A DNA stretch of 64,000 nucleotides from contig JAMCSD010000002.1 in the NCBI GenBank assembly GCA_023380755.1, forward strand, positions 22,022 to 86,021, written 5' to 3'. Shown here in pieces: positions 1,082 to 34,674 of the stretch; positions within the stretch are counted from its first letter, which is position 1; the number at the start of each line of letters is the position of its first letter. Made by a program: the position numbers and the translations under genes. The notes beneath the pieces were generated by a model. The model had not been told where the DNA came from, did not search any database, and was given only the letters and a program-made list of their open reading frames with translations. The DNA comes from Patescibacteria group bacterium (GTDB lineage: Bacteria > Patescibacteriota > Microgenomatia > UBA12405).

Positions 1082-1155
1082 GCGGCTATAGTTTAGCGGT
1101 AAAACATATCCTTCCCAAGGATAGGTCGAGGGTTCAATTCCCTCTAGCCGCTCCA
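1082..1155 (+). tRNA. tRNA-Gly (anticodon CCC), CCA encoded, discriminator U
   Basis: Hand-folded cloverleaf. Acceptor GCGGCTA/TAGCCGC, D stem GTTT/AAAC, anticodon stem TATCC/GGATA with loop TTCCCAA, T arm GAGGG-TTCAATT-CCCTC, then T-CCA. Confidence 0.9.
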
Positions 1156-1176
1156 TATTCCATAAGGCAAGCAGTT

Positions 1177-1249
1177 GCCAGTGTAGCTCAGTTGGTAGAG
1201 CAGGGCTTTCGTAAAGCCAAGGTCGGGAGTCCGATTCTCCCCACTGGCT
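1177..1249 (+). tRNA. tRNA-Thr (anticodon CGU), no encoded CCA
   Basis: Acceptor GCCAGTG/CACTGGC, D arm GCTC-AGTTGGTA-GAGC, anticodon loop TTCGTAA, T arm GGGAG-TCCGATT-CTCCC (unusual C at position 55). Confidence 0.85.
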
Positions 1250-1313
1250 CAGGTAGGTGGGTGTTTGCCACCCACTATAAGATTTGGAAGAAATGTTACA
1301 ATTAAGGAAGTTT

Positions 1314-29112: not shown

Positions 29113-29982
29113 TTATTTTATCTTGAAAAGGCGTAGCTTAGCGGATCGAGATAGAGGGTTCTCTTTGATTTCTTGAGGGGAAGGGGTAATGGGCTTGGGA
29201 GTACAAAGAATTTGGGAAGAGTGTTGTCTGGTGAATTGTTTAACCAGACGGTCTTCGCCGGAATGGAAGGTAATAATGGCGACTTGGCTTTGCGGAAAAT
29301 TTAACAAGGCCTCCAAGGCTTTATTGAGGTTAAGGTATTCCTCGTTAACCACGATGCGGAGAGCCATTAAGATTTTGGTGGCTGGGTGAATGTCGGTTCG
29401 AACACCGCGATGGTGGTAAAAGTCTTTGATGATTTGGGCTAGGTCGGCAGCAGTAGTGATGGGCTGATGGTGCCGTTCTTTGACAATAAGGTCGGCTAAT
29501 TCTTGACTGAAAGGCTCTTGGGCTATTTTAGAGAAAATAATAAAAAGTTCAGTAGCACTGGAATGGTTAATGATGTCTTTAGCAGACAGTTTAGCAGTGT
29601 TATCTAGCCGCATGTCCAAAGATTGAGTATCGGAAAAAGAAAAACCACGGCCGGCTCCCTGGAGTTGATTTTGGCTCAAGCCTAAGTCGAAAAGGATCCC
29701 TTTAAAATGGACTTGGGGGTACATTTCAATTATTTTGTGAATATCGGCAAAGTTTAACTTGAGGGGGATAAAGTTGCTCAACAGTCCAGCTTCCAGGAGA
29801 CGGTGGGTGGCCAACTCTAGGTTGGACTGATCGCGGTCGAGACCATAGACTGTGGCACCTTTCTGTAATAAAGCCAGAGTGTGACCACCGTTGCCAAGAG
29901 TCGCGTCGATAAAGCAATCCCCAGGTTGCGGGTCAAAATAGTGAATAACCGGTTGTAACAGGACCGGGTAATGATAGGCCAT
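29113..29982 (-). CDS. rsmH: 16S rRNA (cytosine1402-N4)-methyltransferase RsmH/MraW
   Basis: HYPVLLQPVI, SAM-binding DATLGNGGHT, DLGLSQNQL, and ITFHSGEDRLVKQF. Confidence 0.95.
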   Translation of the reverse strand: MAYHYPVLLQPVIHYFDPQPGDCFIDATLGNGGHTLALLQKGATVYGLDRDQSNLELATHRLLEAGLLSNFIPLKLNFADIHKIIEMYPQVHFKGILFDLGLSQNQLQGAGRGFSFSDTQSLDMRLDNTAKLSAKDIINHSSATELFIIFSKIAQEPFSQELADLIVKERHHQPITTAADLAQIIKDFYHHRGVRTDIHPATKILMALRIVVNEEYLNLNKALEALLNFPQSQVAIITFHSGEDRLVKQFTRQHSSQILCTPKPITPSPQEIKENPLSRSAKLRLFKIK

Positions 29983-30683
29983 TACTGGGTAGTGTAATCT
30001 CCGGAAATGATACTTTTATCAGCCTTGGTGAGGGTGGCCGGGCTGATATCGGTGACAATCCCCTTCCCGGAACCACTACTAAAGATGGAATAATTGTTTT
30101 TGGGGTTTTTAACTAAGACAAAGAAATCATTCCCTTGCGGTTTGGCTTTGATGGTGACATTATCACTTTTTAAGTTGATATTACCCTGCTTTTTAAGATC
30201 GGCAGCGGAGAGAATGGCAAAGGGAAGCTCAAAAGTGGCTGAAGCATTGTCAGTGGTGACAAAGGTGAGGGTCAGAGTGCCACCGGTGACCCCATCATCA
30301 TATTTATATTTACAGCCATTGGTGCAGGAAGAGGTCCCTAGGAGCAATTTTCTATCCAGATTTTTGTCTCCAGAGAGTTTAATAGTATCGCCTAAGCCCT
30401 TTTCGATATCGAGACCATTGTCGGAAGCAGTATAAAGTAGCTCGTATTCGAGCTGGGCCGCTTTTGAGGTGATATTGCCAATGGTCATTGACAGTTCATG
30501 GCCATCTTCACGGGGAGTGAGGGTGAGTGTGGGCAACTCGTCCTGACTGAGCTTGAGTTCGGAAGCGGCTGGGGTGGGGACCGCCTTTTTGTTGGAAGTA
30601 GTTTTGGCTGGACCACAAGCGGCTAATAGTAATGAGGCCAGGACTAAACCGGTTAAAGGGGCAAGTTTTATTTTCATGAGCAT
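29982..30683 (-). CDS. Lipoprotein, function unknown
   Basis: Signal peptide with a lipobox (LLLAAC-GP). The mature part is beta-rich. It takes the place where mraZ usually precedes rsmH. Confidence 0.6.
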   Translation of the reverse strand: MLMKIKLAPLTGLVLASLLLAACGPAKTTSNKKAVPTPAASELKLSQDELPTLTLTPREDGHELSMTIGNITSKAAQLEYELLYTASDNGLDIEKGLGDTIKLSGDKNLDRKLLLGTSSCTNGCKYKYDDGVTGGTLTLTFVTTDNASATFELPFAILSAADLKKQGNINLKSDNVTIKAKPQGNDFFVLVKNPKNNYSIFSSGSGKGIVTDISPATLTKADKSIISGDYTTQ

Positions 30684-30686
30684 ATT

Positions 30687-32012
30687 CTAGAGGTTTTCCA
30701 GTTTCTTTTCCAGCCAAGATAAAACCTCGGAAGATTTTAACCGAATTTGTTCCATGGTATCGCGGTCACGAATGGTGACGGTATCGTCCTCCATGGTCTG
30801 GTAATCGACAGTCAAACACCAGGGAGTGCCGATTTCATCCTGACGGCGGTATTTTTTACCAATGTTGCTGGAGTCATCCCAATCAATGGAATATTTTCGG
30901 CTAAGAGACTGATAGATTGATTCAGCTTTTTGAACCAGCTCCGGCTTATTAGCGGCCAAGGGGAAAATAGCCATTTTGTAAGCGCTTATTATGGGGCTGA
31001 TTTGCAGCCAGGTACGGATTTCACCATTTTCGAGCTTATCTTCATGATAGGCATCAAGGAGCATAAAGAAGAAACTGCGGTCGACACCTCCTGAGGTTTC
31101 GGTTATCCAGGGAAGGTATTTCTCGTGACTAACGGGATCATTGTAACTGAGATCTTTACCGCTAAACTTACTGTGCTGAGTGAGATCATAGTCCCCGCGC
31201 CAGTGGATACCTTCCATTTCGGCCCACCCCCAGGGAGCTCGATATTCAATATCAAAAGCCTTTTTGGCGTAAAATGCCAATTCATCTGGAGCATGTTGGC
31301 GGAAGCGAAGTTGATCTTTATGATTAAAAATCTTTTGGTACCAATTCATCCGGTTGTCTTTCCAGTATTCGTACCACTTGTCCATTTCGGCAGGGTGGAC
31401 GAAGTATTGGATGTCCCACTGTTCAAATTCGCGAGCACGGTAGAGGAAATTTTTTGGGGTAATTTCGTTACGGAAAGCCTTGCCGATTTGGGCGATACCA
31501 AAGGGGATTTTGACTCGAGTAGAATCGACCACGTTGATAAAATCCAGGTAAATTGTTTGACAGGCCTCACCTTTTAAATAAGCGGTCATTTTTTCGCCTT
31601 CAATAACACCGACCTCGGTCTGGAAAAGTATGTTAAATTTACGAGGAGCGGTAAATGGACCGCCGCAATCGGGGCACTTGCTGGGATCGTCTAAAAGGTC
31701 GGGACGAAAACGATGGTGGCAATTCTTACATTCGACTAACAGGTCGCCGAAGTTTTGCACATGACCTGAAGCTTCCCAGACCTTCGGATGAGTAATGATC
31801 GAGCCGTCAATCCCGACCACATCCCGGCGCCGGATAACATTATCCCGCCACCAAAGGTTTTTCCAATTGAGTTTCATTTGGGAGCCGACCGGTCCATAGT
31901 CATAAAACCCTTGAATACCGCCGTAAATTTCACTATCTTGAAAGATTATTCCCCGCCGCTTACATAAGCTGACGATTTTGCTGACAATATCGTTTTCTTT
32001 TTCGTTTACCAT
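30687..32012 (-). CDS. glyQS: Glycyl-tRNA synthetase, homodimeric class II type
   Basis: The N-terminus IVSLCKRRGIIFQDSEIYGGIQGFYDYGPVG is canonical, with class II motifs downstream. Start set at MVNEK. The 28 upstream codons of the tracked ORF cover the leader RNA. Confidence 0.95.
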   Translation of the reverse strand: MVNEKENDIVSKIVSLCKRRGIIFQDSEIYGGIQGFYDYGPVGSQMKLNWKNLWWRDNVIRRRDVVGIDGSIITHPKVWEASGHVQNFGDLLVECKNCHHRFRPDLLDDPSKCPDCGGPFTAPRKFNILFQTEVGVIEGEKMTAYLKGEACQTIYLDFINVVDSTRVKIPFGIAQIGKAFRNEITPKNFLYRAREFEQWDIQYFVHPAEMDKWYEYWKDNRMNWYQKIFNHKDQLRFRQHAPDELAFYAKKAFDIEYRAPWGWAEMEGIHWRGDYDLTQHSKFSGKDLSYNDPVSHEKYLPWITETSGGVDRSFFFMLLDAYHEDKLENGEIRTWLQISPIISAYKMAIFPLAANKPELVQKAESIYQSLSRKYSIDWDDSSNIGKKYRRQDEIGTPWCLTVDYQTMEDDTVTIRDRDTMEQIRLKSSEVLSWLEKKLENL

Positions 32013-32150
32013 ATGGCCCCTAAAAATTGTAACATCTCTAGGGACTCCGCAGCTGCGGGGTGGTTCCACCCTGATTAGTAAGTTATGCTGATCCAATTAA
32101 CTTACCCACTTGATTATTAACCTCCAGGGAGCCAATCCCCTATCGACGGT
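32013..32150 (-). promoter_or_regulatory. Glycine T-box-like leader (short Stem I with GGC, Stem III, antiterminator with UGGAACC bulge, SD-sequestering helix)
   Basis: Minus strand contains AAUCAGGGUGGAACC, matching the T-box core AAnnnGGGUGGnACC. Helix A1 is AGGG/CCCU. The 7-nt bulge is UGGAACC. Helix A2 is ACCCCGC/GCGGAGU around an AGCU loop. Stem III is GUAAGUUA/UAACUUAC. A hairpin loop UUGGC exposes a Gly codon. GUCCCUA can pair with UAGGGGC, which contains the SD. Confidence 0.6.
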
Positions 32151-32158
32151 TATGGAAA

Positions 32159-32167
32159 ATTATAGCA
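32159..32167 (-). promoter_or_regulatory. Extended -10 promoter element TGCTATAAT for the glyQS leader
   Basis: The same 9-mer occurs at the rplU promoter. It lies 2 nt after the recO stop and about 9 nt before the first leader helix. Confidence 0.45.
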
Positions 32168-32169
32168 CG

Positions 32170-32730
32170 TTAGCGAAAGAGCTTATTACTCTCTAGTTTC
32201 TTTTCGATGATCGATTCCAAAAAGCTTTTAAGGTAACGTTGGCAGGATTTGTAATCGCCTTTCTTATAAAACTGAAGGATATCAGCAGGAATACCGAAGC
32301 CGAGAATTTTGGTAAGCTCGATTTCGTTACCAATATATTTTTTGACATTATTGTCGTTAATGGCTTGGACAATGTTGACAGCGATATCATATAAGCCTTC
32401 GGTGTGCTGGTTTTCGGCTACCAATTGGTTGATAAACTCCAAAAAGTAAAAGAGAAGGTTATGTTGAGTGAGACTTTTTTGGTGGTGGAGAAAAGAACTA
32501 ATGGTTTGAGCTTCAGAAAGCCAGGTTTGCCCGTTTTTTTCATAAAGATGAACCTTGATGATATTGCCTAACTGCAGGCTGCCTAAGCGGCTACTTTTAA
32601 TGTTTTTAGCGCCAACGGCTTTAGTAATGATCTTACCCAAGCCGGGAGTAAGGAGAGTGACCAGAAGATCGTTTTCTTTAAGGGTTTTTTTGTTGATTAC
32701 TAGAGCAGCGGTAGAGGTATAGGATGGCAT
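32170..32730 (-). CDS. recO: DNA repair protein RecO (short form)
   Basis: N-terminal OB-fold pattern (ALVINKKTLKENDLLVTLLTPGLGKIITKAVGAKNIKSSRLGSLQLGN). At 186 aa it lacks the zinc-finger region of longer RecO proteins. Confidence 0.75.
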   Translation of the reverse strand: MPSYTSTAALVINKKTLKENDLLVTLLTPGLGKIITKAVGAKNIKSSRLGSLQLGNIIKVHLYEKNGQTWLSEAQTISSFLHHQKSLTQHNLLFYFLEFINQLVAENQHTEGLYDIAVNIVQAINDNNVKKYIGNEIELTKILGFGIPADILQFYKKGDYKSCQRYLKSFLESIIEKKLESNKLFR

Positions 32731-34674
32731 TTATAATGAGAGTTTGATGGTTTTGTCCGCCGTCCAGTTGAAGGTTTCGTATTTTTGGCCGTTAACCCAA
32801 AGCTCATAAGGAATCGGTTTGGTTCCGGGTTGCTTTTGGAGTAAGAGAGTATAACTGCTGCTGGGAGCAACGGACGAGGTGTATTGGACGGAAGTTCTCA
32901 GGCTTCCCGGGGGGAATAATGGATATTTATTACCATAAAAACCTTCAAAGACTTGTTTCCCTAATTCTTCGTAAAGAACAGGTTCGACTTCAGAGCCGGT
33001 CATTTTAACCAGTTGACTACCGGTGGGGACATAAAATCGAAACCAGTCACGATATTTTTGAGCGTTAAGACATAAATCGCCTTTCTCCAAATTACAGTTA
33101 GAGGGAGGGAAGGGATCAGTATAAGTGATAGTAATTTTATGTTCGACCTTGCCATTAGTGCTGATAATCTCGTGTTTAATCTTCTCGCTTAAAAATAAAT
33201 TAGTTTTGTTACTCGACATATTAGCATCGTTGATATGAAGGTAATCAGTGTTCTTGTCAACCTGGGCGATGGCACCGGCGATATTGGCTTGGACTGCAGC
33301 AGCTTGAACATTTTTGTCCACGAAGTAAAAGAGCATATGTTTTTCATAAATGTCATTTAGTAGACCTTCAGCTAAGGGTCCGATTTTCTCTTTAGGAGAG
33401 CCCATGGCATTGGCTAAAAGGGAATGCATTAACGGTCCCAAAAAGCCCTTACGTTGGGTATCGATGTAGTTACGGGGTTTACCGGCAATATATTCCAGCT
33501 GGTAGATAATTTGAGGACAGCCGCCGCAGCGTTTGTCTGGTTCGGGAGTAAAATTCCCCCAACCGGGAACACCGACACGACCCAAGACTTTAACGAAATC
33601 AACCAATACTTGAGTATCCAGGCCAACGATAGCATCAAATTTGTCAGCAGGATCAGCTTTTTGAAAATAGGGCAACATGGTTTCGATGGAAGTCGGAAAA
33701 TCGGGGGAGATGTTCATGTCGCGGATGTTCCAATAGGGAACGTTGATATGGTAAGCCTTAATCGGACGGGGAGCAGGAACAGTACTTTTGAGTTTGGAAT
33801 CAAGAGAATAAATATCGTCGGAAGCCACTGGAGTAATCTTGCCCTTATCGACCTTAAGGATACCGTAGGCGGTCCAAAAACCACCGGTAGGTCGAAGTTC
33901 GGCGTCATTTTGGAAAAGCAATAAATACTGGCGTGGAGTATCTTTGCCCAGGAGCCAGGAGGTTTTAGAAAGAATTGGCTGGCCGTCTTTTAAGAATTGA
34001 TCGACTTGACCGACAACCTCTTGGGCTTTAAGGATGTTGCTTTGAATTTTGAAGCCTTTATATTCTTCTGGGTAGCGGCTGGCATCTATTTTGTCTAAAG
34101 AATCTTGAATTTTAGATATTTTTTGCTCAATAACGTTTAATTGAGGAACAATTCCTTCAATGGAATCAGTTAAAAAGGCAATCCGGTCTTCGGTGGTTTT
34201 GGCACTGTTAGTCGCTGAGCCTTTAAAACCGATAAAGTCTTGATAAGGTTCAATAGCCTTGATCACGATATCAGCGGTATCCAAACCATCACTGGTAATG
34301 GAAAGTAGCTGCTGGCCATCAGAGTAATAATTTTTAGCAATGGGAATAGCGGAAAGTATAGCTAGTTTTTGGTAGGACTTAGCGAGGTTTTGTTGATCTT
34401 GCCTTAAAGAAGCCACTTCGCTTTTCATTTTATTTAAGTCTTTGCTGGCTAAGATGCTTTGAATTTCCGCCTGTTTATTTTTTAATTGGTTAACTTGGGT
34501 TAAAAATTCTTTTCCAGGTAAGTAGATGGTAGTAAAGGCAAAAATACCGATAACGAGGAGGAGGGCAAAGAAGGCGGTGAGGATATAGAGCGTAGCTTTA
34601 AGAATAGGATGAAGTCTTTTTGGTGGAGCCATCGGAGGTTCTTGATTCGGTAACAGTGAAGGAATTTCGGTCAT
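32731..34674 (-). CDS. DUF4012 domain membrane-anchored protein
   Basis: N-terminal TM anchor and coiled-coil region. The diagnostic motif FQNDAELRPTGGFWTAYG is present. Confidence 0.75.
   Translation of the reverse strand: MTEIPSLLPNQEPPMAPPKRLHPILKATLYILTAFFALLLVIGIFAFTTIYLPGKEFLTQVNQLKNKQAEIQSILASKDLNKMKSEVASLRQDQQNLAKSYQKLAILSAIPIAKNYYSDGQQLLSITSDGLDTADIVIKAIEPYQDFIGFKGSATNSAKTTEDRIAFLTDSIEGIVPQLNVIEQKISKIQDSLDKIDASRYPEEYKGFKIQSNILKAQEVVGQVDQFLKDGQPILSKTSWLLGKDTPRQYLLLFQNDAELRPTGGFWTAYGILKVDKGKITPVASDDIYSLDSKLKSTVPAPRPIKAYHINVPYWNIRDMNISPDFPTSIETMLPYFQKADPADKFDAIVGLDTQVLVDFVKVLGRVGVPGWGNFTPEPDKRCGGCPQIIYQLEYIAGKPRNYIDTQRKGFLGPLMHSLLANAMGSPKEKIGPLAEGLLNDIYEKHMLFYFVDKNVQAAAVQANIAGAIAQVDKNTDYLHINDANMSSNKTNLFLSEKIKHEIISTNGKVEHKITITYTDPFPPSNCNLEKGDLCLNAQKYRDWFRFYVPTGSQLVKMTGSEVEPVLYEELGKQVFEGFYGNKYPLFPPGSLRTSVQYTSSVAPSSSYTLLLQKQPGTKPIPYELWVNGQKYETFNWTADKTIKLSL

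Follow-up and report, generated by a model that had tools for sequence, protein, structure and literature searches.

Overall architecture of the glyQS leader

The leader of the glycyl-tRNA synthetase gene glyQS in a 64,000-nucleotide stretch of contig JAMCSD010000002.1, from a Patescibacteria group bacterium, is likely to be a functional, strongly reduced glycine T-box that responds to tRNA-Gly and controls the initiation of glyQS translation. This whole stretch is hereafter called the window; all positions are given in its numbering, and the T-box element is read on the minus strand (Table 1). A preliminary description of this DNA had proposed a reduced, translationally acting glycine T-box, and this reading is supported by a global alignment to the Rfam T-box family (below threshold), by conservation in relatives and by covariation. 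Every feature that it listed was recovered at the same minus-strand coordinates in a sequence check. By its discriminator and its specifier logic the element is a member of the T-box superfamily, but in Stem I and Stem II it departs from the definition of every subclass described so far.

The element consists of an ultrashort Stem I hairpin that displays the glycine codon GGC in its terminal loop, a short linker, Stem III with its flanking purines, and the T-box core with helices A1 and A2. As the linker is only 8 nt long, there is no room for Stem II or for a Stem IIA/B pseudoknot. The GGC hairpin had been drawn with a smaller loop; the hairpin and the position of GGC within it stand, and the relatives favor a 6-nt loop, AUUGGC, which is closed by a G.U pair and is placed over tandem G.A pairs of the kink-turn (K-turn) type. 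Similarly, the antiterminator had been called a textbook example. A1, the bulge and A2 were indeed found in their places, but A2 is interrupted by a single C.A mismatch and is closed by A-U where the canonical form has G.U.

The conserved T-box sequence AAnnnGGGUGGnACC was found as AAUCAGGGUGGAACC. Among the other features of the RF00230 family, we observed the A1/bulge/A2 arrangement, a UGGN sequence opposite the NCCA of tRNA, the RRRxG-Stem III-AA string, a glycine Specifier and a competing hairpin built on the A1 3' strand; a K-turn at the base of Stem I was present as judged from its sequence pattern. The long Stem I platform and the G.U pair closing A2 were absent, and the score lay below the gathering score.

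Detection by covariance models

In the RF00230 scan that had been suggested as a check, Rfam at its gathering score of 93 matched no T-box in the window, whereas a global alignment was obtained in E-value mode. A 401-nt search in this mode returned the leader as the sole match, with 27.5 bits and an E-value of 2.3e-4, and in a search of the whole window it was the sole T-box-like match (E 0.036). The alignment ran end to end from model position 1 to 219 and contained two large deletions, one of 74 positions in distal Stem I and one of 40 positions in the Stem II region. In this alignment, the 31-nt hairpin was matched to the Stem I base and the K-turn/GA motif.

Two covariance models were then available from related leaders. 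Model R1 was built from 15 leaders, and model R2 was built from 14 related leaders with the window sequence left out, because a sequence matches a model made from itself. R2 found positions 32156-32037 with 63.6 bits and an E-value of 1.3e-12, and the runner-up in the 64 kb scored 11.8 bits. The leader is a member of the family that this model describes.

Rfam at the gathering score also matched no T-box in 19 related loci, which included canonical-looking leaders from Dictyobacter. The RF00230 scores of the family members were 30-54 bits and that of the long Dictyobacter leader was 60 bits, all under 93. The 93-bit threshold is not discriminating here, since a canonical-looking Dictyobacter leader fails it as well. 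With scores of 27-54 bits against a gathering score of 93, standard annotation pipelines miss these elements.

Conservation and covariation of the helices

We compared the leaders in two alignments, a MAFFT alignment of 15 leaders that was not fitted to structure and a model-based alignment of 29 copies; the latter leans towards the model, and it agrees with the unfitted one. While the overall mean column identity was only ~50%, GGC was invariant in 15 of the 15 MAFFT-aligned leaders and in 29 of the 29 model-aligned copies. GUGG.ACC was invariant in all 15 leaders, and both UGGNACC and the AA after Stem III were conserved. Every copy having Stem III contained AAGUG, AAGAG or AAGCG, and in the 29 copies GGC was separated from the G of RRRxG by 17-32 nt (median, 26 nt).

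Covariation in the glyQS leaders of relatives, which the preliminary description had named as a way to check its proposal, was present as compensatory changes in Stem III, A1 and A2 in both alignments. In the MAFFT alignment, Stem III was 91% paired, A1 93% and the bulge-proximal part of A2 91%, and the numbers of pairs changed on both sides were 7/8, 4/5 and 3/3, respectively (14/16 together). When the poorly aligned lower Stem I helix was included, giving 20 pairs, 80.8% of the cells were paired, compared with 62.5% in shuffled alignments (none of 500 reached the native value) and 38-47% when the strands were slid; 17 of these 20 pairs showed changes on both sides. The corresponding values for the 29 copies were 86.5% paired, 66.2% shuffled (0/500) and 37-50% slid, with compensatory changes in 20 of 21 pairs, and Stem III was 94% paired with 8/8 pairs compensatory. 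Across both alignments, A1 was 93-94% paired and the bulge-proximal A2 was 91-97% paired, all with compensatory changes. Additionally, RNAalifold predicted the GGC hairpin, Stem III and A1 unaided.

Stem I required a separate treatment. Its register shifts between the loop types G[AUUGGC]U and G[UUGGCA]U or G[AUGGCA]U, with the 3' arm moved by 1-2 nt, so that fixed columns, in which Stem I was 42-62% paired, understate it. We therefore exchanged the arms between members around the invariant GGC. The native arms had a mean energy of -5.27 kcal/mol, compared with -2.91 kcal/mol for exchanged arms, and none of 10000 permutations reached the native value. The arms of Stem I thus covary around an invariant GGC.

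The pair that closes A2 varied: among the 29 copies it was GU in 15, AU in six, GC in four, CG in two and UA in two. A recurring motif, YUGGA(N)AUCA/AACA, was also observed in the Stem III loop (32086-32097), and it is found at the same place in loci L008, L060, L042b, L146, L161 and L153b. Its UGGA is the same tetranucleotide as that of the T-box bulge, and the motif might provide another contact or a docking site in place of tertiary contacts that were lost.

Expression platform

In the minimum free energy (MFE) fold of the free RNA, a 12-bp hairpin was formed that includes AGGGG and leaves 3 nt free before the AUG; the hairpin is followed by CAU and then by the glyQS ATG (32012-32010). The 5' arm of this predicted sequestrator reuses the 3' strands of A2 and A1, and its 3' arm carries the AGGGG that resembles a Shine-Dalgarno (SD) sequence and is the only such element, which the hairpin covers. 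We found no U-tract or terminator-like site after the hairpin in the window. An alternative pairing at UAGGGGC had been noted before; as a competing hairpin lacking a U-tract it holds, but it comprises 12 bp and not 7.

The computed energies were -16.0 kcal/mol for the sequestrator and -10.8 kcal/mol for the antisequestrator formed by A1 and A2. These values came from explicit structure evaluation, as soft constraints failed to enforce A1 in the ON fold. On these calculated values the sequestrator is the stronger structure, as is usual for T-boxes, where it falls to the ligand to stabilize the weaker helix.

The SD-burying hairpin of the preliminary description recurred in 12 of 15 Shapirobacteria-type leaders. 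In these leaders, the equivalent hairpin opens with the A1 3' strand (CCCU or CCUCU) and closes in AAGGA, AGAGA, AAGGG, UAGGA or like purines, a few nt before the AUG. The unconstrained fold of locus L190 was without a hairpin starting at the A1 3' strand. Per-sequence folds were used here because the register differs between sequences; on the MAFFT columns the sequestrator gave a weak signal, with 70% paired versus 59% when slid by +1. Other members of the family end in a stem followed by a U-run (L078, L042a, L144a, L153a, L150a, L175 and L105).

Candidate tRNA partner

The variable base of the T-box bulge is A, and UGGA is complementary to UCCA, matching the U73-CCA of the tRNA-Gly encoded in the window. 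This tRNA had been adduced for its discriminator base, and U73 was confirmed together with an encoded CCA; its anticodon, however, is CCC, which excludes it as the partner of a GGC specifier. tRNA-Gly(CCC) was therefore rejected as the ligand, owing to a C-C clash at the third codon position of GGC. GGU and GGC account for 82 of the 109 Gly codons (75%) in five neighboring genes, and from this codon usage and standard decoding rules a GCC isoacceptor is expected. By the identity rules of bacterial tRNA-Gly, this isoacceptor should carry U73 as well. A pairing of the loop UGGC with a GCCA between the SD-like element and the AUG was also considered and was rejected, as GCCA is not at that place in relatives.

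The tRNA-Gly(CCC) gene lies 21 nt apart from a tRNA-Thr(CGU) gene (window 1082-1250, plus strand). The Rfam match "Plastid-ycf2" antisense to tRNA-Gly was spurious, with 33.3 bits compared with a gathering score of 65.7.

Distribution among relatives

A scan of one genome per species revealed 205 GlyRS relatives. The best of these were 74-82% identical to the window GlyRS and mostly named Candidatus Shapirobacteria; this identity to Shapirobacteria metagenome-assembled genomes (MAGs) identifies the host as a member of the Patescibacteria group, Microgenomates group, of the Candidate Phyla Radiation (CPR), as the preliminary description had suspected in calling the genome CPR-like.

A homologous leader of ~120-150 nt was present at 13 of the 44 Shapirobacteria glyQS loci with enough upstream DNA. 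The other 31 loci (L002-L057) were without it. Of these 31, 27 have a -10 box (TATAAT in most cases) 5-9 nt ahead of the ATG, and an SD-like motif was found in none of the 31, so that glyQS appears to be leaderless there. T-box-led and leaderless glyQS alternate among close relatives.

The family is not confined to glyQS. A search with R1 found two tandem copies in a Gottesmanbacteria MAG (L042, 845-1178), ahead of glyA, which encodes serine hydroxymethyltransferase (SHMT), a 180-aa open reading frame (ORF) and glyQS. A metagenome scan with the pattern TGGCN{35,65}CAATTAGGGTGGAACC gave at least 120 loci. In roughly half of the 120 listed loci, the pattern had matched the canonical T-box of a single gut organism through a fortuitous TGGC (30.7 bits with R1), and about a dozen of those listed were useful new members; as the pattern fixes the A1 5' strand, these loci add nothing to the covariation of A1. 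Among the matches listed, members were located before glyQS (L190, L146 and L161), before glyA (L153, L144, L168 and L170) and before small ORFs (L150 and L175).

Tandem mini glycine T-boxes were observed in L042 and also in L144, L168, L170, L153, L150 and L175. The first copy ends in a U-tract terminator and the second mostly ends in a hairpin over the SD sequence; the operon glyA, 180-aa ORF, glyQS recurs on Gottesmanbacteria-like contigs.

Some members are reduced further. Stem III is absent in the Shapirobacteria leaders L001, L015 and L019, in which AAGUG (AAGUA in L001) is followed by a few A-rich nt and then directly by A1 (L001 2940-2960, L015 2925-2945 and L019 2925-2945). The K-turn is absent in five members (L015, L019, L024, L026 and L037). 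The nearest relatives of the window GlyRS outside the CPR, Dictyobacter (Chloroflexi; 58-60% identity), have a leader (L043) with a long Stem I, an AG bulge, a distal loop and an internal GGC specifier, and this long form fits a descent of the mini form by reduction.

Several other leaders are possible intermediates. In L113 (1042-1188), GGC lies in an internal loop under a 5-bp distal hairpin. In L194 (5255-5404), a Firmicute-like glyQ leader, GGC lies in a large terminal loop beside a separate hairpin with a loop, GGUAGUGAAAG, similar to platform motifs, and L171, L183, L179 and L132 possibly have the same layout.

Proposed mechanism and alternative explanations

According to the proposed mechanism, the free mRNA would form the 12-bp hairpin 32045-32016, burying AGGGG, and glyQS would not be translated (OFF). 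In the ON state, the anticodon of uncharged tRNA-Gly(GCC) would pair with GGC in the loop of the ultrashort, K-turn-bearing Stem I, and the free 3' UCCA of the tRNA would pair with UGGA of the T-box bulge. A1 and A2 would then be stabilized and would capture the GUCCCU strand from the sequestrator, freeing the ribosome-binding site, whereas glycyl-tRNA would be rejected at its 3' end. The affinity would come from three G-C codon-anticodon pairs together with the discriminator contacts, where other T-boxes use a Stem I platform on the elbow or Stem II.

Several observations weigh against this reading. The elbow platform and Stem II are both absent from the window element, and a truncated Stem I alone has been reported to have barely detectable affinity for tRNA without Stem II (PMC7583486; PMC11297988). 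At the base of A2, the window has A-U in place of the G.U wobble, which occurs in only 15 of the 29 copies. A search of the window and of ~75 related loci revealed no tRNA-Gly(GCC). Approximately 70% of the Shapirobacteria species manage without the leader. On the side of the output, the hairpins of L012 and L022 (2 of 15) are without SD-like purines, and use of SD sequences looks modest, as 32 of the 60 long ORFs in the window are without an SD-like motif in a crude scan. Finally, the sequestrator itself contains a -10-like TGTTACAAT (32034-32026, minus strand), 13 nt before the ATG, and TATAAT lies 7-10 nt before the ATG in L079, L024, L026 and L015; part of glyQS expression may bypass the leader, and these internal boxes could represent an additional promoter that escapes regulation, or a starting point for the leaderless state. 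The absence of the platform, of Stem II, of a conserved G.U pair and, in some members, of Stem III or the K-turn does not undo the T-box reading.

The most serious rival accepts a working tRNA-Gly sensor and places its output elsewhere, not (or not mainly) in SD sequestration: in mRNA stability, in Rho-dependent termination, or in inducible transcripts made on top of a basal promoter inside the sequestrator. This rival would account for the internal -10-like boxes, to which TGCTATACT downstream of the L078 terminator (L078 2976-2984) can be added, for the U-tract terminators in relatives of the same family, and for the two hairpins without SD-like purines and the weak SD use in the window. However, neither a U-tract nor a terminator-like site was seen in the window, the hairpin, which covers the sole SD-like element, stops 3 nt short of the AUG, and SD-like purines were found only in leadered loci. 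We consider control that is not purely translational to be improbable, though it deserves more weight than any other alternative.

It is less probable still that the leader is a decaying relic of a canonical glycine T-box that has kept its shape and lost the tRNA response, acting for example as a constitutive translational damper. The patchy occurrence, with 13 of 44 Shapirobacteria loci leadered and the rest leaderless, marks the element as dispensable, and the loss of the Stem I platform, the loss of Stem III in three leaders, the unconserved G.U sensor pair and the full-length Stem I of Dictyobacter all speak for decay. What a relic would not explain is that GGC, UGGNACC, RRRxG and AA remain invariant while the leader diverges to half identity, that every helix is maintained by compensatory changes, and that tandem copies recur before glyA in another phylum-level lineage.

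Autoregulation of aminoacyl-tRNA synthetases through leaders that mimic tRNA is known, as for E. coli thrS, and a K-turn-like motif is present here, both of which would suit an operator bound by GlyRS itself or by an L7Ae-type K-turn protein, with tRNA not being the ligand. We regard such a protein operator as very unlikely: the loop displays the codon GGC and not the anticodon GCC, so tRNA-Gly is not mimicked; the conserved UGGA of the bulge is the exact complement of the tRNA 3' end; the K-turn is missing from five members; and the same RNA precedes glyA.

A chance likeness to the T-box consensus, with GGGTGG/CCACCC as a mere palindrome, would agree with the pairing of GGUGG with CCACC in the free-RNA MFE fold and with an Rfam score far under the gathering score, but it is refuted by the comparative data, namely the match to R2 with the window left out, the covariation of A1 and A2, and the failure of the palindrome to be conserved, as the sequence after ACC varies among relatives (GCG, GUC, CUC and AUC).

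The reading of the leader as a tRNA-Gly-responsive T-box can be extended to the whole family, and here our confidence is lower, although we lean towards it. The Microgenomates minimal T-box, of ~100-115 nt from Stem I to A1 (~90 nt without Stem III), would recognize tRNA-Gly through a 3-bp contact between loop and anticodon and a 3'-end discriminator, without elbow contact, Stem II or an obligatory G.U pair. It would act as a translational switch in the window and as a transcription terminator switch in relatives, sometimes in tandem, on both glyQS and glyA. If true, this architecture would overturn two rules, that a truncated Stem I needs Stem II and that transcriptional T-boxes need a long Stem I.

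Genomic context and coordinates

The leader is located between a recO-like gene (Pfam RecO_N), which ends at 32170 on the minus strand, and glyQS. The gene order in this region (29116-34674, minus strand) is a DUF4012 protein, recO, the T-box, glyQS, a 233-aa ORF without a Pfam match, and rsmH. A T-box between recO and the GlyRS gene is the arrangement of Bacillus as well, and this shared site hints at old vertical inheritance.

The -10-like element upstream of the leader is a putative promoter, and transcription would start at ~32152. The TGNTATAAT pattern was matched four times in the window, every time on the minus strand, compared with 2.6 matches expected, which is not above chance; a promoter scan that needs a -35 hexamer reported no extended -10 element. 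GC skew was positive in all 4-kb bins (0.08-0.26), and the cumulative skew climbed without a turning point across the window (1-64000). The skew and the minus-strand-only TGNTATAAT matches fit a single replichore with a strong strand bias.

Table 1. Positions of the leader elements and associated genes in window numbering.
Feature	Position	Strand	Basis	Remarks
Extended -10-like element TGCTATAAT	32167-32159	minus		starts 2 nt past the recO stop codon (32172-32170); putative promoter
Ultrashort Stem I hairpin, ACC-GUC-GA-UAGGGG[AUUGGC]UCCCUG-GA-GGU	32150-32120	minus	fold	31 nt; C-stem ACC/GGU, 3-nt bulge GUC, tandem G.A/A.G (K-turn/GA motif), helix UAGGGG/UCCCUG, loop AUUGGC
Specifier GGC (glycine codon)	32133-32131	minus		Stem I terminal loop
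Linker UAAUAAUC	32119-32112	minus	sequence	single-stranded, 8 nt
AAGUG	32111-32107	minus		5'-RRRxG purine string ahead of Stem III
Stem III, G-GUAAGUUA/UAACUUAC-U	32106-32077	minus		9 bp (G.U + 8 bp); 12-nt loop AUUGGAUCAGCA
AA	32076-32075	minus		after Stem III
T-box core AAUCAGGGUGGAACC	32076-32062	minus		
Antisequestrator AGGG-UGGAACC-ACCCCGC-AGCU-GCGGAGU-CCCU	32072-32040	minus		
Helix A1, AGGG/CCCU	32072-32069 with 32043-32040	minus		
T-box bulge UGGAACC	32068-32062	minus		7 nt
Helix A2, ACCCCGC/GCGGAGU	32061-32044	minus		AGCU loop
Sequestrator hairpin GUCCCUAGAGAU-GUUACA-AUUUUUAGGGGC	32045-32034 with 32027-32016	minus	MFE fold	12 bp
UAGGGGC	32022-32016	minus		contains SD-like AGGGG (32021-32017), 4 nt before AUG
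glyQS	32012-30687	minus	translation; Pfam HGTP_anticodon and tRNA-synt_2b	alpha2-type class II glycyl-tRNA synthetase, 441 aa
tRNA-Gly(CCC)	1082-1155	plus	ARAGORN, Rfam, sequence	U73, encoded CCA

Comparison with known T-boxes

How an RNA can read both the identity and the charging state of another RNA is studied with T-boxes as the model system. According to current structural work, capture of tRNA needs either a long Stem I platform on the elbow or, with a short Stem I, clamping of the codon-anticodon duplex by Stem II. A conserved, covarying family with neither would define the minimal natural requirements for tRNA sensing, would show how far three G-C pairs can replace tertiary contacts, would test the real need for the G.U sensor pair and would offer a compact scaffold for engineered tRNA sensors. 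It would also mean that genome-reduced CPR bacteria, usually thought to be little regulated, monitor tRNA-Gly charging at glyQS and glyA, and the presence or absence of the leader before glyQS in close relatives is a natural comparison of regulated and unregulated states.

We found no literature linking T-boxes to the CPR, Patescibacteria or Microgenomates, in a search that missed most subscription papers; within the same reach, the preliminary description's remark that no T-boxes were described for this lineage holds. In TBDB, the use of the translational model was confined to Actinobacteria and class I hits. In the window element two known reductions, an ultrashort Stem I and the lack of Stem II, are joined in one RNA, for glycine and in the CPR. 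The window element is more stripped-down than any natural tRNA sensor that we found described in the literature searched.

In the review of Zhang (2020), the discriminator is formed by RRRxG-Stem III-AA together with A1, the bulge and A2, the G.U pair at the A2 base is the main steric sensor of the 3'-aminoacyl group, and Stem III is called indispensable for binding of the tRNA 3' end (PMC7583486). The same review states that transcriptional T-boxes generally require a long Stem I, and the parts of Stem I that stack on the elbow are reported to be essential for them (PMC7583486). Glycine T-boxes are described as those without Stem II (PMC11297988, a 2024 paper), and the ultrashort class is described as having its Specifier in the terminal loop, with all members regulating ileS (10.1101/2023.02.28.530422).

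The two nearest systems for comparison are the ultrashort ileS T-boxes of Actinobacteria and the canonical glycine T-boxes. The former are reportedly known from M. smegmatis and M. tuberculosis, in work said to be that of Sherwood, Grundy and Henkin in 2015 and of Battaglia and colleagues in 2019. The window element is similar to this class in that a short hairpin carries the Specifier in its terminal loop, an elbow-binding platform is lacking and a K-turn stands at the base; the discriminator likewise comprises Stem III, A1, the bulge and A2, and an SD sequestrator is predicted to compete with an antisequestrator. There are also clear differences. The ultrashort ileS T-boxes are stated to serve ileS and tRNA-Ile only, whereas the window element has GGC and its family precedes glyQS or glyA; the host belongs to the CPR (Microgenomates) and not to Actinobacteria, and some family members have intrinsic terminators. 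[quoted passage not shown]

With the canonical glycine (glyQS/glyQ) T-boxes of the Firmicutes B. subtilis, G. kaustophilus and O. iheyensis, and with that of the Chloroflexi Dictyobacter (L043), the window element shares GGC, the lack of Stem II, the K-turn, the linker, the RRRxG-Stem III-AA string and a UGGA/UGGG bulge for U73. In contrast, the canonical glycine Stem I is ~90 nt long, with an internal Specifier Loop, an AG bulge and a distal loop, which stack on the tRNA elbow, and these parts are deleted in the window. Additionally, the canonical glycine T-box ends in a terminator and has A2 closed by G.U, while the window element ends in an SD hairpin and has A-U at that position.

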